Shown here one piece after another: positions 35,471 to 48,545 of a stretch of DNA of 64,000 nt. Location of the stretch: NCBI GenBank assembly GCA_022072125.1, contig JAJVIH010000018.1, forward strand, positions 27,868 to 91,867, in the 5' to 3' direction. Below the pieces are notes generated by a model, which searched no databases, was not told where the DNA came from, and was given only the letters and a program-made list of their open reading frames with translations. Every line of letters starts with the position of its first letter. The first letter of the stretch is position 1. The stretch is from Myxococcota bacterium. Its GTDB lineage: Bacteria; Myxococcota; JAJVIH01. Both the position numbers and the translations under genes were made by a program.

Positions 35471-35752
35471 TCATGTGTAATTCTTTTTCTGGGCGATGGC
35501 CACCAGCGCGTTCATGTTTTTGGTCACAAATTTCCTGAATTCATCCGGATCGATATCCGTGCCTTCAATCACCTTCTGGATGATCTCCTCCAGGCCCGCA
35601 TAACGGTTCCGGGATATCTCCATGGAGACCTTGAGCAGGGCGGCCGGATAATAGGGATGATGAACCAGTTCCTCGGGGGGGAGGGCCTGGTCCGGATCAT
35701 TGCCGCCGTTGGGGGGCGAGGCGGGGGGATTCTGGCGATTGGAATTGTCCAT
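35471..35752 (-). CDS. Small hypothetical protein
   Basis: 93-aa ORF with typical codon usage, downstream of a good sigma-70-like promoter; start uncertain. Confidence 0.55.
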   Translation of the reverse strand: MDNSNRQNPPASPPNGGNDPDQALPPEELVHHPYYPAALLKVSMEISRNRYAGLEEIIQKVIEGTDIDPDEFRKFVTKNMNALVAIAQKKNYT

Positions 35753-35779
35753 GGGATTCGGTGGTGCGTTTGAACCATT

Positions 35780-35808
35780 ACCATATATCACCATACATGT
35801 GCGGTCAA
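35780..35808 (-). promoter_or_regulatory. Candidate sigma-70 promoter
   Basis: Minus strand TTGACC-N17-TATGGT in an AT-richer patch. Confidence 0.5.
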
Positions 35809-36094
35809 ATATGTTGTTCCGCCTCCAGCCACCCCACCCCCATGGTTTGCGGCTGATCCACGGCGCAATCGCCTGTCCAGCGGCGCGCCCGGACGCCGGG
35901 CCTTCGGCTCGCCGGGGGCAAGTCAACCGCGCACCAAGGATATAACGCCGTGGCCGCCGCCGGCCAGAGCATCTCCGCTGGTGTGAGAAGACTCCTCACC
36001 GGACCGCCGGATGTGACCGAACATTCCCCACAAACGCCCGCCGCACGCCGGAAAGAAGTCCATCCAGCGGGGCCGGCCATGCAAGGAGATTGCC

Positions 36095-38401
36095 ATGCAC
36101 CCGAGACACTGGTGGAAATACCTGTTGGCGGTTCTGGTCATTGGCGCGGCGGGCGTCATGTACATGGGCGCAAAGACTTACAGCGACGCGCCGCCAGTTC
36201 CGGATTTCGCCGGTCCGGACGGAACGGTGCTTATCACCAGCAGTCAGGTGCTGGACGGCCAGGAGGTCTTTCTCAAGCGCGCCCTGATGAACTACGGTTC
36301 CATGTTCGGAGACGGCGCCGGGCGCGGGCCGGATTTCACCGCCGAGGCGCTGAATACCGGCGCGCGCGCCATGCAGCAATGGTACGAAGCCGCGGCGGAG
36401 CGCGATCCCGTCCTCGCCGATCAACTCATGCGCGAGGGCGTGGCGGGCCGCGTGCAACACGACATCCGCCACAATGCCTGGAATGCGGAGACCAACACCG
36501 TGCGGCTGACCGCGGCGCAGGCCGCGGCGTGGAAGGCGGTGCAGGATCATTATACCGCTAAATTCGCCTCGCGGTCCGCCGGCGCGTTCCAGCCCGCCGG
36601 ACTGATTTCGGACCCCGGCGAGATACATCTCTTGAGCGCGTTTTTCTTCTGGGGAGCATGGGTCTGCGGCGCGGAACGGCCAGGAACCGGCGCCAGTTAC
36701 ACGCACAACTGGCCCTACGACGAACTGGCCGGCAACCGTCCCACGCCGGGGACTTCATTCTGGAGCGTGATGGGATCGCTGGCCCTGATCCTGGCGCTGG
36801 GGGGCGTGCTGTATCTCCATGGACGTTATTCAGACGCCGAAACGCGCCAGCCGGAAGACATCAGCCCGCCAGCCACCATCGCGCGGGTGAGCGCGGCGAG
36901 CGCCTCCGGCCTGCAGCGGCTGACCTACGCATTTTTCGTCACCGCCATGGCGCTCTTCCTGCTCCAGGTCATCGCCGGCGTGTTCACGGTGCATGATTTT
37001 CTGGGCTTCACCACCTTCTTCGGAATCAACTTTTCGGAATATCTCCCGGTGACAGTGACCCGGAGTTGGCATGTCCAGTTCGCGGTGCAGTGGATCGCCG
37101 CCTGCTGGATCGCCGGTTCGCTGTTTGTATTGCCGCGCATCGCGCCACAGCCGCCCTCCCAGGTGACGCTGGCGAAAATTCTTTTTGGCATGCTGGTCAT
37201 CGTGGTGGCGGGCACGCTGGTGGGAGGCGTTCTGGGCCCTCATGGATTGCTGGGCGAATACTGGCGCGCACTGGGAAACCAGGGCTGGGAATTTGTCGAA
37301 CTGGGCAGGGTCTTTCAGTGGATATTGTTCGGGGTGTTCATCCTGTGGGCGATCATCCTGATTCGCGGGGTCTGGCCCGCGCTGGGAAAAGCATCGCCCT
37401 TCTCGATTCCCAACTGGATGCTCTACACCACGGCGGGAATCACCCTGTTGTTCGCGTCGGGATTCGTTTCGGGACCGCGCGCCAATTTTGTCATCGCCGA
37501 TTTCTGGCGCTGGTGCGTCATCCACATGTGGGCGGAATGTTTCTTCGAGGTGTTCACCACTGTGATCGCCTCGTGGTTCCTGGTGACAATGGGGGTGCTG
37601 GGCAGGCAGCGCGCCGAACGCATCGTGTTTCTGGCGGTCCTGCTTTTCCTGGGGTCGGGCCTGCTGGGCATCAGCCACAATTTTTACTGGAACGCCAAGC
37701 CTGAACCCATGCTGGCGATTGGCAGCGTCTTCTCCACCATGCAGGTGATTCCGCTGATCATGGTGACGGCGGAGGCCTGGCGTTTCCGCCGTTTGCCGCG
37801 CCAAGCCATGCGCAACGAAGGCGGCGTCAGCCAGTTCGGACTTACCGAACCCTTCCTGTTTTTGCTGGGAGTGAACTTCTGGAATTTCCTGGGCGCGGGG
37901 GTGTTTGGATTCATCATCAACCTGCCCATCGTCAATTATTTCGAGCATGGCACCTACCTGACAGTGAACCATGGCCACGCAGCGCTGTTTGGCGTGTACG
38001 GCAACCTGTCCATCGCGGCGGCCCTGTTCTGCGCCCGTTATCTCCTGCGCGCGGAGGCCTGGAGTCCGCGCATCCTCCGGATTTCCTTCTGGAGCCTGAA
38101 CGGGGGCTTGCTGCTGATGGTGCTGATGCACACCCTGCCGCTGGGGGTGGCGCAGTTCATGCTGGTGCTGCGCGAGGGATACGCCGCCGCACGCTCCCAT
38201 ACCTTCGTCGAAGGCCCGCTGTTCCAGACGCTGACCTGGATGCGCGCCATCGGCGGGGTGACGTTTTTCCTGGGAGGCGTGGTTCCGCTGGTGTGGTTCT
38301 TCCTGTCCCGGGCCAACAGCCTGAAACCCCCGGCGCCAGAGGCCGCGATGGAGAAGAAAGAATCCGGCATGGAGGCCGGAGCCGCCGCCGCCCCGTCCTG
38401 A
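36095..38401 (+). CDS. qNOR-superfamily heme-copper oxidoreductase with nitric oxide dismutase (Nod)-type active site
   Basis: qNOR architecture ('YTHNWPYD', 'RSWH', 'QGWEFVELG', 'HGHAA'); Nod-type motifs 'GDGA.RGPDF', 'HMWAE', 'GISHNFYW', 'STMQV'; AAGGAG RBS. Confidence 0.88.
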   Translation: MHPRHWWKYLLAVLVIGAAGVMYMGAKTYSDAPPVPDFAGPDGTVLITSSQVLDGQEVFLKRALMNYGSMFGDGAGRGPDFTAEALNTGARAMQQWYEAAAERDPVLADQLMREGVAGRVQHDIRHNAWNAETNTVRLTAAQAAAWKAVQDHYTAKFASRSAGAFQPAGLISDPGEIHLLSAFFFWGAWVCGAERPGTGASYTHNWPYDELAGNRPTPGTSFWSVMGSLALILALGGVLYLHGRYSDAETRQPEDISPPATIARVSAASASGLQRLTYAFFVTAMALFLLQVIAGVFTVHDFLGFTTFFGINFSEYLPVTVTRSWHVQFAVQWIAACWIAGSLFVLPRIAPQPPSQVTLAKILFGMLVIVVAGTLVGGVLGPHGLLGEYWRALGNQGWEFVELGRVFQWILFGVFILWAIILIRGVWPALGKASPFSIPNWMLYTTAGITLLFASGFVSGPRANFVIADFWRWCVIHMWAECFFEVFTTVIASWFLVTMGVLGRQRAERIVFLAVLLFLGSGLLGISHNFYWNAKPEPMLAIGSVFSTMQVIPLIMVTAEAWRFRRLPRQAMRNEGGVSQFGLTEPFLFLLGVNFWNFLGAGVFGFIINLPIVNYFEHGTYLTVNHGHAALFGVYGNLSIAAALFCARYLLRAEAWSPRILRISFWSLNGGLLLMVLMHTLPLGVAQFMLVLREGYAAARSHTFVEGPLFQTLTWMRAIGGVTFFLGGVVPLVWFFLSRANSLKPPAPEAAMEKKESGMEAGAAAAPS

Positions 38402-38595: not shown

Positions 38596-40416
38596 ATGCC
38601 TGCCAGCCCGGTGGTCAATTACAATACGGAATTTCTCTGTGAGCTTCTGATCCGCCAGCGGTTATTGACGGAGCAGCAACGCAAGGAAGTCTTCACCCAC
38701 GAAGCGCAGATGCGCGCCAAAATCATGCGAGCCCGCCAAGGGACCAGCCGCGGCAGGCGCTCCGCCGCCCCCATGATCAACATCAGCCCGGTGGAGATCA
38801 TCGCCGCGTTCAATTTCCCGATGCCCGATAACCCCAACCGCACCATCACCGAAGATCGCATCATGGAGGCGATCGCCCGCGAGGAGCGCATCCCCTACCA
38901 GAAGCTGGACTCGTTGCGGCTCGACAACAAGGCGGTGACCGGGGCGCTGTCCGGCAAGTTCTGCCGCCGCCATACCCTGATACCGGTCGCGGTGACCGAT
39001 CAGGAACTGACGCTGGCGGTCAGCAACCCTTTCGATACCGCCGCGCTGGAGGAAGTCCGCCGGTCGTCTGGAAAGGCCATCCGCTACATCCTCTCCTCGC
39101 CCACGGACATCAACCGGATCATCAACGACTTCTTTGGATTCCAGCGCAGCGTGAAGGGCGCCGAACTGCGCATGAAGGAGGGTCCGGACCTCGGCAATCT
39201 GGAGCAGTACATCAAAATCAAGGGCGTCGAGGAGATTGACCCGACCGAAAAGCCCATCGTCAGTCTGGTGGAGTATATGTTCCACTTCGCCTTTGATCAG
39301 GGCGCCAGCGACATCCATATCGAGCCCAAGCGCGAACACAGCGAATTGCGCATGCGCATTGACGGCATTCTGCACACGGTCAACAAATTCAACCGCGTCA
39401 TTCATCCCGCCGTGGTCGGGCGCATCAAGACCATGGCGCGTCTGGACATCGCGGAAAAACGCAAGCCGCAGGATGGCCGCATCAAGGTCGCGCGGGGCGA
39501 CCGCGAGGTCGAGTTGCGTATTTCCACGCTGCCGGTGGCCTTTGGCGAAAAGGTGGTCATCCGCGTGTTTGATCCGGAGATTCTGATCCAGGATTTCGAC
39601 AAGCTGGGATTCTTCCCGCGCGAACGGGAGATTTACGAAACCTGGCTGAACCAGCCCAACGGCCTGATCCTGGTCACCGGCCCCACCGGATCGGGTAAAA
39701 CCACCACGCTGTATTCCTCGTTGCGGCTGGTGGCCACGCCGGATGTCAACGTCACCACCATCGAAGACCCCATCGAAATGGTGTGCGAGGAGTTCAACCA
39801 GACCGCCGTCAACCCCAAGATCGGTCTGACCTTTTCCGCCGCCCTGCGCAATATCCTGCGTCAGGATCCGGATATCATCATGGTGGGCGAAGTGCGCGAC
39901 CCCGAAACCGCCGAGAACGCCGTGCAGTCGGCGTTGACCGGCCACCTGGTGCTGGCCACCCTGCACACCAACGACACCCCCAGCGCCATCTCGCGCATGA
40001 CCGAACTGGGGGTGAAGCCCTTTCTTCTCGCCTCGGTGTTGCGCGGGGTGATGGCCCAGCGCCTGGTTCGCCGCATCTGCATGGAATGCATCACCGACGG
40101 CGTGTTGACGGAAGAGCAGATCACCTCGCTGGACATCCAGATTCCGGAAGGCATGCCGCGCGAATTGCCGGTGAAATTCGGCGAGGGCTGCCCGGAGTGC
40201 CGGTTCACGGGTTACCGGGGCCGTACGGCGATTGTCGAGGTCATGCCGATCAGCCACAAGGTCCGGAAAATGATCAACGACAATATTGACGCCAAGGAAA
40301 TCATGAAGGTGGCGCGCGCCGACGGCATGATGACGCTGCGCGAATGCGCCATCAAGAAGCTGGCGCATGGCGTGACCACTTTCGAGGAGGTGTTCCGCGT
40401 CACCGCGGATTCATAG
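38596..40416 (+). CDS. GspE/PulE/PilB-family secretion ATPase
   Basis: 'ASDIHIEP', Walker A 'GPTGSGKTTT', 'EDPIE', 'LRQDPDIIMVGEVRD', His box 'TGHLV..TLH', CxxC...CxxC. Confidence 0.92.
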   Translation: MPASPVVNYNTEFLCELLIRQRLLTEQQRKEVFTHEAQMRAKIMRARQGTSRGRRSAAPMINISPVEIIAAFNFPMPDNPNRTITEDRIMEAIAREERIPYQKLDSLRLDNKAVTGALSGKFCRRHTLIPVAVTDQELTLAVSNPFDTAALEEVRRSSGKAIRYILSSPTDINRIINDFFGFQRSVKGAELRMKEGPDLGNLEQYIKIKGVEEIDPTEKPIVSLVEYMFHFAFDQGASDIHIEPKREHSELRMRIDGILHTVNKFNRVIHPAVVGRIKTMARLDIAEKRKPQDGRIKVARGDREVELRISTLPVAFGEKVVIRVFDPEILIQDFDKLGFFPREREIYETWLNQPNGLILVTGPTGSGKTTTLYSSLRLVATPDVNVTTIEDPIEMVCEEFNQTAVNPKIGLTFSAALRNILRQDPDIIMVGEVRDPETAENAVQSALTGHLVLATLHTNDTPSAISRMTELGVKPFLLASVLRGVMAQRLVRRICMECITDGVLTEEQITSLDIQIPEGMPRELPVKFGEGCPECRFTGYRGRTAIVEVMPISHKVRKMINDNIDAKEIMKVARADGMMTLRECAIKKLAHGVTTFEEVFRVTADS

Positions 40417-42684: not shown

Positions 42685-43092
42685 ATGCAGGATCGTCCCT
42701 CACCCGATGTATTGCTGGAAGCGGTCGCGGGTTTTCTCGCGGGCGATGTTCAGGCGGCGATCACGGACAAGGGCCTCCAGTTCCGCGTGCTGATCGCCGC
42801 CAACCTGGCGGGCGTCGTCGCGCGGGAAATCCGCGAGATGGAGCCGCAGAGCCAGGCGGAAGCCGCGCGCCTGATGAAGCTGTTGGGCCGCGAGGGCGGA
42901 CCGCCCGCGGAACTGGGCGAACGCATCGGGGCCATCCGCGAGATGAACGGCGAACTGGCGCGGCTGATTCGCGGGCGCGGCCTGAACGCGGACCAACTGC
43001 GCGAAGCCATGGCGCACTGCAAGCAAACCTTGCAGGAGAAGTTGGAAGTGGCCAACCCGCGCTTTGACCTCAACCAACAGATTGAGCAGTAA
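42685..43092 (+). CDS. DUF6285-like protein
   Basis: 'MQDRP...LLEAV..FL', 'RV..AANL...V.RE', 'KLEVANP'; GGAGG RBS; usual partner of the upstream phosphotransferase. Confidence 0.7.
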   Translation: MQDRPSPDVLLEAVAGFLAGDVQAAITDKGLQFRVLIAANLAGVVAREIREMEPQSQAEAARLMKLLGREGGPPAELGERIGAIREMNGELARLIRGRGLNADQLREAMAHCKQTLQEKLEVANPRFDLNQQIEQ

Positions 43093-45289
43093 CCAGGCCT
43101 GACAGCGCCTCGCGTTGCCAGTTCTTGAGTTCATCCATGCTCAGGGCCTCGTAGGCTTCCTCCAGCGAGATGTCCCCATTCATGGCCTTGCCCAGGGCGT
43201 CCGCCACCAGCGAACGGTTGGGGCTGGTTTCGATGGCGTCGAAGGCCTCAAGCTGTTTGGCCTGCCTGGCCTGTTCGCGGCGGCGATCATAAGCGGGAGC
43301 CCACAGCTCGAAGAGGCTGATGCGCCCGCGCGAGCCCCGGAAATTGCAGCGTTCGCATCCCGCGCCGCGCCAGAACCGCGCCTCCGGCGGAGCGCCGCGC
43401 GGAAAGAACTCCTTCACCATGGCGGGATCGGGCGAGATCTGCGTTTTGCACCCGGGACACAACCTTCGCACCAGCCGCTGGCTGATCACGAACAGCAGGG
43501 AATCGGCGATCAGGCTGCGCATGCCGCCCATGTCTTCAAGCCGGTTGACCACGCCGCGCGCGTTGTTGACATGCAGCGAACTCAACACCAGGTGACCGGT
43601 CATGGCGGCTCGAAGAGCGGTTTGCGTGGTGGGTTCGTCGCGGATCTCGCCGACCAGGATGACATCTGGATCCTGCCGCAGGAAGGCGCGCAGGAACACA
43701 TCGAAGCTATTGCCAATGGCGGGATTCACCATGCTCTGCTGGATGCCGTCCACGTAGCGTTCAATCGGGTCCTCCGCGGTCATGATTTTCATTTCACGGG
43801 CCAGCAGATGCTGGAGCAGGGAATAAAGCGTGGTGGTTTTTCCGGAGCCGGTGGGTCCGGTGACCAGGATCAGGCCGTGGGGACTGTCGAGCAGGCGCAA
43901 CAGGTACGCCAGGCCGGCCGGGTCAATGCCCAAATCGCCCACCTGCAGCATCGCCGCCGCTGGATCCTGGATGCGCAGCGCCGCGTTTTCCCCCCATGCG
44001 GTGGGCTGGATGGAGACGCGGATTTCCCGTTCCCGCCCCATCAGTTTCTCGCGCATGCCGCCATCCTGCGGACGCCGCCGCTCGCTGATGTCCAGGTCCG
44101 ACTGAATCTTGATGGCGTTCATGAGCGGCCGCACCGTCGCCGGATTGAGCCGCGACGTGTTGAAGCGCGTCATGCGGCCATCCACCCGGAAGCGCAGGTC
44201 CACGTGGTGCTGAAAACTTTCGATGTGGATATCGCTGGCGCGCTGTTCGACCGCGGCGGACAGGATGGAGCGGAACATCGCGGGACCGCTGATGGCGTCA
44301 TCGCCCAAACGCTCGGCCAATGCATCGGGGAGCGGCAGTCCCGCGGAAATGGCGGCGCGGCATTCGGGGGCCAGGGGGCCGTACAGCGCCTCGGTAAGCA
44401 GACGGATATTGTACGGCGTGGTGATCACTGGAATGGCGAGACGCGCCCCGGCCATCTGTTTGACAAAATCCAGCGACTGGATATCCGGCATGCGTGAAAA
44501 AGCCGTGAACAACAGATCGCCGGTGAGACGCAGGGGAATGAAACCGTCAAACTGCCCGCTTCGCCGTTCAAACACCGGGCATAAGGACGTATCCGCCAGC
44601 GCCAGCAACTCGCTCAGCCAGACGTGAGGGGAGTTGGTCCAGGCGCAGGCCCACTCCATGACGGCCTGATCCTGCAGAAAGCGCCGGGTGGCGAAATCAA
44701 TCCACAGGTTGAGGTTCTGCAGGTTGTCATGGGTGATGGGCTCGCCAATCGCCCGCATGATTTCGGAACGCTGGGCGGCGGTCAGGGCGCCCCGGCGCAC
44801 CAGATAATCGGACAGCGCGGCGTTGCGCGGATGAACCTGCGCGCGCAGTTCTTCCAGACGCCTGACCGCTTCGGTGAAACGGCTGATGGTTTGCAACACC
44901 ACCGGCTGGGTGCGGACGCCATCGCCGGATTCGATGGGGCCGCCGGAAAATCCGGGTTTCGCCACGCCGAAAACCTGGTGTTCAAAAACCGAAACCGGCA
45001 AAAAGCCCCCGGCGGTCCAGGATTCCAGACCGCCGGGCGGCGCGGGATCGATCTCCACGAACAAATCGTTCCATGATAGCCCGAATACTCCCTTGGCGAT
45101 GCATACCGCGCGGCTCAGCTTGCCGGGCGTGACCGCGGGCAGTTGTTGCGCGGCCAGCGGCAGGTTGACCCCCGCCTGCCGGAGCGTCAGCAGATTTTCC
45201 CGTTCGTCCGGGGTGATGGCGCCCTGCGCAAGCAGAAACTCCACAAAGACCCAATCAAATTCATCATGAGACCGCTCTGGGATCAGCAT
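43070..45289 (-). CDS. GspE/PulE-family ATPase, second paralog with long N-terminus
   Basis: 'ASDIHIE', 'GPTGSGKTTT', 'EDPIE', 'LRQDPDVILVGEIRD', 'TGHLVLSSLH', CxxC...CxxC. Confidence 0.88.
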   Translation of the reverse strand: MLIPERSHDEFDWVFVEFLLAQGAITPDERENLLTLRQAGVNLPLAAQQLPAVTPGKLSRAVCIAKGVFGLSWNDLFVEIDPAPPGGLESWTAGGFLPVSVFEHQVFGVAKPGFSGGPIESGDGVRTQPVVLQTISRFTEAVRRLEELRAQVHPRNAALSDYLVRRGALTAAQRSEIMRAIGEPITHDNLQNLNLWIDFATRRFLQDQAVMEWACAWTNSPHVWLSELLALADTSLCPVFERRSGQFDGFIPLRLTGDLLFTAFSRMPDIQSLDFVKQMAGARLAIPVITTPYNIRLLTEALYGPLAPECRAAISAGLPLPDALAERLGDDAISGPAMFRSILSAAVEQRASDIHIESFQHHVDLRFRVDGRMTRFNTSRLNPATVRPLMNAIKIQSDLDISERRRPQDGGMREKLMGREREIRVSIQPTAWGENAALRIQDPAAAMLQVGDLGIDPAGLAYLLRLLDSPHGLILVTGPTGSGKTTTLYSLLQHLLAREMKIMTAEDPIERYVDGIQQSMVNPAIGNSFDVFLRAFLRQDPDVILVGEIRDEPTTQTALRAAMTGHLVLSSLHVNNARGVVNRLEDMGGMRSLIADSLLFVISQRLVRRLCPGCKTQISPDPAMVKEFFPRGAPPEARFWRGAGCERCNFRGSRGRISLFELWAPAYDRRREQARQAKQLEAFDAIETSPNRSLVADALGKAMNGDISLEEAYEALSMDELKNWQREALSGLVTAQSVG

Positions 45290-46304: not shown

Positions 46305-47306
46305 CTACCCGGACGGGCGCACGGCGTTGACGAGGGGACGCTGTTCCTCGAACGCGGTCAGGTTATCCAGCGTGACGGATGCGATATTGTGCAACGCTTC
46401 GCGCGTCAGGAACGCCTGATGGGCCGTGACAATCACATTGGGAAAGGTGAGCAACCGCGCCAGCACGTCATCCTGCAACACGGTATTGGAAAGGTCCTCG
46501 AAGAACACCCCTTCCTCTTCCTCATAGACATCGAGACCAGCCGCGCCGATGCGCCGGGTTTTGAGGGCGCGAATCAGCGCCATGCTGTCAATCAGCGCGC
46601 CGCGTCCCGTGTTGATGATGTACACGCCGGGCTTCATGCGGGAGATCGCGGCGTCGTCAATCATATGGCGGGTGGACGGCGTCAGCGGCACGTGCAGGCT
46701 GATGATATCCGACTCCGCATATACCTCATGCAACCCGGCCTGCCGGAATCCGGGCGCGCCAGCCAGTCCGGTGTGGGGGACCAGATCGTATCCCAGCACG
46801 CGGCAGCCGAACCCCAGAAAGATGCGCGCCGCCGCCTGGCCTATGCGTCCCAGTCCGATCACCCCCGCGGTTTTGCCATGCAGATCAAACCCAGCCAGTC
46901 CGTCCAGCGAGAAATTGCCCTCGCGCACCCGCGCGTGGGCGCGGTGAATATGCCGGTTCAGCGCCAGCACCAGCGCCACCGCGTGTTCCGCCACGGCGTA
47001 AGGGGAATATTCGGGTACGCGCAGAACGGGAACAGCCAGGCGGGCGGCCGCCCGGAGGTCCACATGGTTGAAACCGGCGGAGCGCAACAGCAATACCCGC
47101 GTGCCGCCTGCGTGCAGCTCTTCGAGCACCCGGTCGTCCACCCGGTCGCTGACGAAGGAGCAAACCGCCGGGTATCCCCCGGCAAGGGCCGCGGTTTCGG
47201 GCGTCAACCGCGGCTCCAGGTAGGTAATTTCATGCCGCCCGCTGGCGTTCGCCGCATCAAACGCTTCCCGGTCATACCGCCGGGAATCAAACATCACCAT
47301 GCGCAT
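46305..47306 (-). CDS. ldhA: D-lactate dehydrogenase (D-2-hydroxyacid dehydrogenase)
   Basis: 'LRSAGFNHVD', 'RVPEYSPYAVAEH', 'GLGRIG', 'INTGRG', 'DVYEEE', 'TAHQAFLT'. Confidence 0.9.
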   Translation of the reverse strand: MRMVMFDSRRYDREAFDAANASGRHEITYLEPRLTPETAALAGGYPAVCSFVSDRVDDRVLEELHAGGTRVLLLRSAGFNHVDLRAAARLAVPVLRVPEYSPYAVAEHAVALVLALNRHIHRAHARVREGNFSLDGLAGFDLHGKTAGVIGLGRIGQAAARIFLGFGCRVLGYDLVPHTGLAGAPGFRQAGLHEVYAESDIISLHVPLTPSTRHMIDDAAISRMKPGVYIINTGRGALIDSMALIRALKTRRIGAAGLDVYEEEEGVFFEDLSNTVLQDDVLARLLTFPNVIVTAHQAFLTREALHNIASVTLDNLTAFEEQRPLVNAVRPSG

Positions 47307-47365
47307 GACGTTGGACCTTTGTGTGGATCAGGATCGGGGCGCGGCAAACCGTATCCGTTTCTTGC

Positions 47366-47396
47366 AAAAAAAATCAGCCGGCCTGACACGGCCGGC
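47366..47396 (-). terminator. Probable terminator after the cobA/hemD-SirB1 operon
   Basis: gccggcc/ggccggc stem followed by T8 on the minus strand. Confidence 0.5.
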
Positions 47397-47450
47397 GGCC
47401 ATCCCGCGGCGCGGGCGGGTTTCATGTCATCAACAGGCATCAAGCCGTCC

Positions 47451-48305
47451 TCAGTTCACGCCGCCGAATCCTTCCGTGGGGGCCAGCAAGGCCAGCACCT
47501 CCCGGGTCTCCTCTTCATCATCGTGACGGGCGGCCCAGGCCATCAGGTCCTCGCGGGCCCTGGTCATCCGGCCCATGCGCAGGTTAAGCAGGCCCCGGGT
47601 CTTGCGCTCGCAGAGATCATCCGGGTTGAGCAGCAACAGGCGATCCAGCACATCCATCATGCGCGGGTAATCCGAACGGCTGAAGTAGATGGTCTTCAGG
47701 TTGTTGAGCATGCGCGCCACGGTCGCCTGGTTCGAGGCGCGCCGCCGCCAGACATTCAGTTGTCCGGGTTCCTGACCGGCGTATTCCCGGATCATCTCCC
47801 GGCAGTCCCTGTCGGTAACCAGTTTGCCGCCGTTGAAGACATCCACGTATAGCGGATCGGTCTCGCCCACCGCCGCGAGAAAATGCGAGGGGAAATTGAT
47901 CCCGTGCACCGGAAAACCCGCCCTGCGGGCCACTTCGGCGTAGATCACCGTCAGCGAAATCGGAATGCCCGTCCGGTTGTCAATGACCCGGTTCAGAAAA
48001 CTGTTCCCGGGGTTGTAATAATCCTCGTCATTTCCATGAAAGCCCCATTCCGTGAAAAACATGGGGTGATAAATCGAAACAAAATCCTCCGGATCATCCA
48101 CGCCATCGGACAGGGCCTCCTTCAGTTGATCCGCGAAGACATCCAGCAATTCGCTGTAGGGTTCGGCGTCGGCATTGGGAAATTCGATTTCGGCGACGGC
48201 GAACGCTGCTTCCCACAGGCAGGGCACGTCGCGGCGCATTCCGGCGTAGCGGCGGAAACGTTCGATGGGTGTTTCATTGGGCGTTGGCAGAGAGGCGTAT
48301 CCCAT
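47451..48305 (-). CDS. SirB1-family (transglutaminase-like + TPR) protein
   Basis: 'GF.GN..DYY.P.NSFL..V', 'GIPISL', 'FPSHFL', 'RMLNNLK'; start uncertain. Confidence 0.85.
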   Translation of the reverse strand: MGYASLPTPNETPIERFRRYAGMRRDVPCLWEAAFAVAEIEFPNADAEPYSELLDVFADQLKEALSDGVDDPEDFVSIYHPMFFTEWGFHGNDEDYYNPGNSFLNRVIDNRTGIPISLTVIYAEVARRAGFPVHGINFPSHFLAAVGETDPLYVDVFNGGKLVTDRDCREMIREYAGQEPGQLNVWRRRASNQATVARMLNNLKTIYFSRSDYPRMMDVLDRLLLLNPDDLCERKTRGLLNLRMGRMTRAREDLMAWAARHDDEEETREVLALLAPTEGFGGVN

Positions 48306-48326
48306 GACCGTTCCATTCAAGCGCGC

Positions 48327-48545
48327 TCAGGAAACCTTGTAAACCTCCCCCGAAGGATCATCCGGAGCGCCTTCCGGAATATCCCGGGTGAAAGTGACGA
48401 ACGCCATGGCCGGACGCTTGGAGGTGTCCCGCATGGCGAAGTGGATCCCCTCAAAATTCCAGCCCTGGGAGACAAATTCGTTGACGATCTGCTCCAGGGT
48501 TTCATCGGTGACGGTGCTGGTTTCGACAAATTTGAATTTCAGCAT
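48327..48545 (-). CDS. DUF4177-like small protein
   Basis: 'KFVE.S.V...LE...NE....GW'; AAGGAG RBS before ATG 48545. Confidence 0.7.
   Translation of the reverse strand: MLKFKFVETSTVTDETLEQIVNEFVSQGWNFEGIHFAMRDTSKRPAMAFVTFTRDIPEGAPDDPSGEVYKVS

Follow-up and report, generated by a model that had tools for sequence, protein, structure and literature searches.

A putative NO scavenger of the nitric oxide dismutase (NOD) family in a probable Myxococcota genome

A stand-alone NOD-family gene with a remodelled metal site

The stretch of DNA analysed here (the window, 64,000 nucleotides; all positions refer to it unless a contig is named) carries on its forward strand, at 36095..38401, an uninterrupted open reading frame for a protein of 768 amino acids. 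We refer to this intact gene as nod, as its product almost certainly belongs to the NOD family, a qNOR-derived part of the haem-copper oxidase superfamily. A Shine-Dalgarno-like AAGGAG (36083..36088, +) is located 6 nt 5' of the ATG. According to Pfam the protein consists of a NorB cytochrome-c-like domain (aa 40-208) and a COX1 domain (aa 276-722). It has 13 hydrophobic segments and CxxCH is absent, also from the cytochrome-c-like domain. NCBIfam offered no matching NOD model, and homologues carry the names norB or cbb3 subunit I, in line with the expectation that automated annotation hides such genes.

The gene is located in the middle of a 106 kb contig, where it stands alone with TolC/ExbBD genes on one side and PilB/Asd genes on the other. 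The locus showed no insertion scar. A small ORF of about 107 aa with a Pro/Asn-rich start and without a Pfam match is encoded divergently from nod (35471-35797, -). Downstream, two PilB/GspE-type ATPases with MshEN-like domains (38596-40416 and 43070-45286) are encoded within 5 kb and flank asd and an APH-family/DUF6285 pair. Upstream of nod we found no FNR/DNR, CRP or NsrR boxes, the consensus patterns showing at least three mismatches. A sigma70 scan gave no plus-strand site near the nod start, and no terminator was found after the stop codon.

We mapped the residues of the protein on the Geobacillus qNOR structure 3AYF, its best solved relative (E 2.5e-140; no sequence among the 13 PDB matches is named NOD), reading the equivalences by hand from the pairwise alignment. 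The qNOR numbers are given in brackets. The low-spin haem ligand position is occupied by His326 (His355; 37070..37072, +), and the other haem ligand positions by His626 and His628 (His651/653; 37970..37978, +). In the motif HMWAEC (37523..37540, +) His477 (His508) and Glu481 (Glu512) of the non-haem metal site are kept and are followed by Cys482 (Gly513). The motif HNFYWNAK (37676..37699, +) retains His528 (His559) and includes the NOD-wide Lys535, but His560 is replaced by Asn529 (codon at 37679). Catalytic Glu581 is replaced by Gln550 (37742..37744, +), and Glu429 corresponds to Glu399. The quinol site is affected as well: Gly721 (38255..38257, +) stands in place of the quinol-binding Asp746, and a remodelled segment (36992..37018, +) keeps His300 (His328) and Phe308 (Phe336), has lost Glu332 (Gly304) and carries the NOD-wide Asp301. 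Near the N-terminus the motif GDGAGRGPDF (aa 72-81; 36308..36337, +) contains the NOD-wide Asp73 (His90) and Arg77 (Met94), with Gly76 at the position of Tyr93, which we take to be a Ca2+ ligand in qNOR. Hence, the non-haem site is altered to His, His, Asn and Glu, with Gln for Glu581, while the haem ligands are intact.

The original prediction had called most of these residues, from His300 and His326 to Gly721, as well as the N-terminal motif, and all of them were found where it had placed them. It had likened the H560N, E581Q and D746 changes to those of Methylomirabilis Nod, and all three are present; the available part of the paper that defined these substitutions calls dismutation itself speculation (PMC3413370). 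The losses of Glu332 and Tyr93 had been missed.

Positions 37540-37834, which span the codons of both Asn529 and Gln550, were identical in two contigs from RNA libraries. Shares in the nine RNA runs were 0.00-0.12, and four of the runs were compared with the window; as all their sequences are contigs picked by presence of the nod gene and DNA carry-over is possible, we claim neither an expression level nor a habitat. The Asn529/Gln550 signature is fixed in homologues, absent from qNOR and identical in the RNA contigs, and is thus neither chance nor an assembly error.

Placement within the NOD family

The homologue search gave 1584 matches among 8000 scored candidates, and the best 120 were analysed. 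Identities to the 119 homologues were 53-67% (52-66% by BLASTP for the best 120), and the named sources among these best 120 were mostly Planctomycetota (including Scalindua japonica), Bacteroidota and Betaproteobacteria, with Flavihumibacter and Asinibacterium as named cultured strains. A search of 50%-cluster representatives yielded qNORs and one His328-lacking NOD (P0121). Used as a query, P0121 gave 120 further NODs, and JGI names two of these ‘nitric oxide dismutase’. These 120 are our canonical-type NODs, and in all trees they act as stand-ins for Nod of M. oxyfera and HdN1. After removal of three shorter canonical-type rows, 253 rows, each 700 aa or longer, were left in the alignment: 120 near rows (query included), 117 canonical-type rows and 16 qNORs.

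Asn529, Gln550, Lys535, Asp73 and Arg77 were present in 120/120 near and 117/117 canonical-type rows, and Asp301 is also common to both branches. None of the 16 qNORs had Asn529 and Gln550, and all 16 kept His560, Glu581 and Asp746. His328 was kept in 117/120 near rows versus 0/117 canonical-type rows. The query had a median identity of 56% to near, 44% to canonical-type and 33% to qNOR rows. In IQ-TREE analyses of 22 rows the split between NOD and qNOR received a support of 100/100 and that between the near and the canonical-type branch 100/99 and 100/100. Joining the query to the His328-lacking branch was rejected (AU p=4.6e-57; seven stand-in rows, groups named before the tree was made). 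The trees thus place the protein outside the canonical qNORs, in the NOD family, and within its His328-keeping ‘intermediate’ group, as the original prediction had proposed. In a FastTree phylogeny with named loci the query nests among Planctomycetota, beside six genomes at 62-66% identity and Scalindua.

Comparison with known enzymes leads to the same placement. The protein shares with qNOR (Geobacillus 3AYF/3AYG; 6QQ5, 6FWF) the single-subunit architecture, the haem ligands, His508/Glu512/His559, Glu429, Arg742, His328 and Phe336. It differs by the replacement of His560, Glu581, Asp746, Glu332 and Tyr93 and is only 29-39% identical to the 16 representatives. A canonical qNOR has a three-His FeB site with Glu512 and Glu581 and a quinol site with His328 and Asp746; the losses of His560, Glu581 and Asp746 together with the tree position rule out this identity. 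With Nod of M. oxyfera (DAMO_2434/2437) and HdN1 it has in common the His to Asn and Glu to Gln exchanges, the loss of Asp746 and a haem-less cytochrome c domain, and with the 117 stand-ins Asp73, Arg77, Asp301 and Lys535. However, it shows only 38-48% identity to the stand-ins, falls into a separate sister clade and, unlike the stand-ins, keeps His328, and the host has no nitrite reductase that we could find and no methane or alkane context that was apparent. In NC10/HdN1-type enzymes loss of the quinol site covers His328, Glu332 and Phe336 (PMC10286720, available part). Here Glu332 and Asp746 are missing while His328 and Phe336 remain, which together with the AU test against the stand-ins rules out a strict NC10/HdN1-type Nod, although the Glu581 to Gln exchange of that type is present.

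NOD has also been defined more broadly, by exchange of one metal-site His for Asn with the haem His and two metal His retained (PMC11549561, available part). The protein agrees with this definition (Asn529; His326, 626, 628, 477 and 528), and groups with NODs apart from qNOR in a clade that includes S. japonica, which is entered as NOD in a supplement table of the same paper. It is closest to the Planctomycetia-type Nod or ‘unknown qNor-related’ branch (S. japonica, P0056), with which it shares the clade, the Asn, Gln and Gly substitutions and, with Scalindua, Cys482. What differs is the host: it is not a planctomycete, and NirS, present in the six nearest Planctomycetota genomes, was not detected in it. 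Planctomycetia-type Nod is described as about 40% identical to the alpha type, with the product left open (bioRxiv 10.1101/2023.11.21.568154, available part), and our equation with that named clade rests on S. japonica and this identity figure. Caution has been urged for ‘unknown qNor-related’ sequences (PMC10286720; PMC7338807). The available parts of PMC11549561 list NOD in 16 phyla and four subclades and, in the supplement, in 16 Myxococcota or Myxococcota_A genomes. The branch has therefore been published before, and existing catalogues include Myxococcota NODs; the gene is a further member.

To judge the stability of the signature we used 80 genome loci, 79 of which gave a protein by filter; with G071 left out 78 remained. 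The metal and haem residues (including Glu481/Glu485), Asn529, Lys535 and Gln550 were invariant in 78/78, partly by design since one search pattern contained the Asn and Lys, and Asp at position 721 occurred in none. His300 was kept in 46/78 loci, the remainder having Asn, Ala, Ser or Gly, and according to FastTree His328 disappeared separately in Saprospiraceae, in one group of marine planctomycetes and in the canonical-type branch. Repeated loss inside the ‘intermediate’ branch makes His328 a poor classifier of function and its retention weak evidence for quinol use. The Cys after HMWAE that the original prediction had pointed out is present but is not special to this gene: it marks the subclade of Scalindua and the nearest Planctomycetota (23/78 loci). 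Ala takes its place in 55/78, ruling out Cys482 as a unique catalytic residue.

The host and the context of nod

The host assembly comprises 3.97 Mb (95.8% complete, 0.01% contaminated). The best named matches of its Asd are Thermodesulfobacteriota/Deltaproteobacteria (59-64%), which points to a host of deltaproteobacterial grade, probably a member of the Myxococcota, in agreement with the original prediction. MYXO-CTERM gave 17 matches in the host and occurred in 18/23 same-phylum genomes. We rejected it as a specific taxon marker because it also occurs in 2/3 Planctomycetota tested (in Planctomycetota-titled genomes, six matches in G041 and ten in G044).

Six of 40 same-phylum genomes had a match at 33-40% identity. 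Nine of the ten matching loci were read and all nine were canonical qNOR; no NOD-type gene was found in these 40 genomes. The gene seems to have been acquired horizontally, a direction that we infer, with Planctomycetota as the probable source. Among 1170 long host genes its GC3 (0.81) ranks at the 63rd percentile and its codon adaptation (0.68) at the 40th, and this host-like composition and the lone position fit an old horizontal gain. That nod nests among planctomycete sequences, has no conserved neighbours and lacks counterparts in the 40 same-phylum genomes could also mean that it is a relic without function or a planctomycete gene binned in error. We regard this as very improbable, as the reading frame is intact with all NOD-invariant residues, lies mid-contig next to an Asd gene with best matches of deltaproteobacterial grade, has host-like codon use and is represented by exact pieces in RNA libraries.

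Three COX1-family genes were found in the host: an A-type oxidase, a cbb3 oxidase and nod, which is the only NOR-family match among them. The absence of a nitrite reductase, originally noted for the window, holds for the whole assembly: NirS and also Hcp had no match, and NirK, NosZ and NrfA gave only sub-cut-off matches to multicopper oxidases, CoxII and a penta-haem protein. A genome search for nirK/nirS, nosZ and oxygenases had been proposed along with the original prediction. It retrieved none of the former, and no Rieske ring-hydroxylase was found (search control positive in 4/14). Three desaturase-family genes are present. Searches of the host for pMMO and di-iron monooxygenases were blank but uninformative, as their controls gave no signal either. 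MenB scored above the cut-off; MqnA was not found. As no Nir was found, NO probably comes from outside the cell.

The host further encodes two periplasmic DMSO-reductase type II operons that resemble anammox-type Nxr/Nar. One (C40:5565-11915) comprises alpha, beta, haem-b gamma and chaperone genes with host-like codon use, is flanked by molybdenum-cofactor-like genes, contains a short run of N in the alpha gene and is 41% identical to the second copy. In the second (C49:13865-23384) the alpha subunit shows 56-57% identity to Scalindua matches and 68% to a Planctomycetales match. This operon goes with a di-haem c/haem-b subunit, an Rrf2 regulator and genes of transposase-like type. Its 58.6% GC, atypical codon use and these neighbours suggest an island or a contig binned in error. 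A general co-occurrence of nod with periplasmic Nxr/Nar was rejected (15/49 related genomes, 0/6 closest). Unlinked to nod, a protein that is presumably of the RIC/YtfE type is encoded near a di-haem peroxidase-like gene (C13:44477-45307 and 47256-48341); it is 33% identical to a nod-neighbour in Saprospiraceae.

The survey of related genomes used the first 50 of the 80 loci and, without G071, comprised 49 genomes. Because of their kinship and incompleteness we use the counts for description only. Nir only was found in 17, NosZ only in 15, neither in 13 and both in four. The 28 genomes without a Nir match suggest that NO often comes from outside. An Rrf2-type regulator was encoded within 6 kb of nod at 23/80 loci, all Bacteroidota, and a protein we take to be RIC-like was found near nod at 9/80; no neighbours were conserved across the relatives' loci. 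In 6/19 nosZ-positive genomes, from three phyla, nod was less than 16 kb from nosZ on one contig (G066, G073, G079, G083, G089 and G090), four of the six copies lacking His328. One of these genomes, a Rhodocyclales (G073:C14), carries a His328-keeping NOD on each side of nosZ, all within the same contig. The six closest genomes, all Planctomycetota, have NirS and no NosZ that we could find, and four of them have a second, His328-lacking NOD and no canonical qNOR match. In these four (G041-G044; L102-L105), which have one NOD per branch, the second copy shows Asn at 328 and HMWVEAT.

NO reduction weighed against NO dismutation

The substrate of the enzyme is very probably NO. With about even confidence we propose that it is a putative NO scavenger at the membrane, a stand-alone NOD-family member and the only NOR-family enzyme of its host. 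N2O has about even odds of being the product and is more likely than N2 + O2. The host would be an aerobic or microaerobic heterotroph which may reduce nitrate to nitrite by a periplasmic Nar/Nxr-type enzyme. NO would be supplied by neighbouring denitrifiers or formed chemically from nitrite. Haem b3 and the remodelled metal site would together bind two NO, which would be reduced to N2O. Electrons might come from menaquinol at the altered site (speculatively His300, Asp301 and Phe308) or from another donor, and one idea is that Asp301 substitutes for Asp746. As NosZ was not found, N2O would be released from the host.

The position in the tree, outside qNOR and in the near branch, and MenB in a host with no other NOR-family COX1 gene are consistent with this scavenging by reduction. 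So are the contexts of NO stress around nod in relatives (Rrf2-type and RIC-like neighbours), the many related genomes without Nir, the proximity of nod to nosZ and the finding that NOD is the only qNOR/cNOR-type match in 3/4 Nir+NosZ genomes. Linkage of nod to a nos cluster is described for Cecembia rubra (PMC11828985), and nitrite reductase was reported in only 4/32 nod MAGs (bioRxiv 10.1101/2023.11.21.568154). In the available parts of further sources, a gNOR mimic shows that replacement of an active-site His is compatible with NO reduction (PMC11214002), Nod-like genes and N2O go together in an oxygen-deficient zone (PMC5723336), and foraminifera whose Nor is a neighbour of Nod produce N2O (PMC6783311). 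Yet the enzyme has lost the quinol-site residues Asp746 and Glu332 and the catalytic Glu581. Members of the branch can do without His300, which argues against an essential quinol ligand, and a search upstream of nod gave no FNR, NsrR or CRP-like box. Moreover, the core changes Asn529, Gln550, Lys535, Asp73, Arg77 and Asp301 are common to the His328-lacking branch, so that both branches may perform the same non-reductive chemistry.

A true dismutase, which the original prediction had brought up as a source of O2, would convert 2 NO to N2 + O2 without external electrons. NO from neighbours would then be used under anoxia, sparing reductant and feeding O2 to the cbb3 or A-type oxidase or to O2-dependent enzymes. 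The common core, the published His to Asn mark of the family (PMC11549561) and the lost quinol-site Asp and Glu fit this chemistry, as do the high-affinity-type cbb3 oxidase, the A-type oxidase and the three desaturase-family genes of the host. The 17 related genomes with Nir and without NosZ, among them the six closest, and the second NOD without canonical qNOR in four of these six form a pattern expected of dismutation; truncated denitrification explains the pattern of the closest six equally well. We consider dismutation possible but doubtful, since joining to the His328-lacking branch was rejected, His328 and Phe336 are kept, neither Nir nor a Rieske ring-hydroxylase was found in the host, and nod is linked to nosZ in relatives. 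O2 generation, as raised in the prediction, is thus not supported. None of the PDB matches is a NOD, and a 2026 paper, in its available part, states that NOD is still not isolated or characterised and proposes NO detoxification (PMC13386854). We likewise found no purified or expressed NOD in the literature searched, which left out most subscription journals.

It is unlikely that the enzyme performs another or a mixed chemistry, such as reductant-dependent N2O formation with some O2, reduction of O2 or peroxide, or binding of NO with little turnover. The non-haem site is unlike that of all characterised NORs, Tyr93 is replaced with Asp73 and Arg77 fixed nearby, and O2 release with N2O is described for other microbes without nod (PMC11549561), but the conserved Glu481/Glu485 and haem ligands and the NO-stress neighbours point to NO. 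Similarly improbable is a cross-fed oxygenic NO sink in which the planctomycete-derived NOD would split the NO of neighbours into N2 + O2, cbb3 would respire the O2 in anoxia and Nar/Nxr would supply nitrite back. If true, this would bypass N2O.

Whether the NOD family produces the greenhouse gas N2O or N2 + O2 is a long-standing question. The gene offers no easier test of it than the cultured carriers of the same branch (Flavihumibacter, Asinibacterium). Its use is that of a clean genomic case, in which NOD is the sole NOR-family enzyme and neither Nir nor NosZ was found. Two comparative points stand beside it, namely the repeated loss of His328 and the location of nod near nosZ even in copies without His328. 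The two-NOD Planctomycetota are good candidates for comparing the function of both branches. In a Scalindua genome (G059:C5), too, there is a second NOD without His328; it lies some 7 kb away from the Nxr alpha gene of that genome. Finally, one close NOD homologue (P0057, 930 aa) has a C-terminal thioredoxin domain (PF00085).
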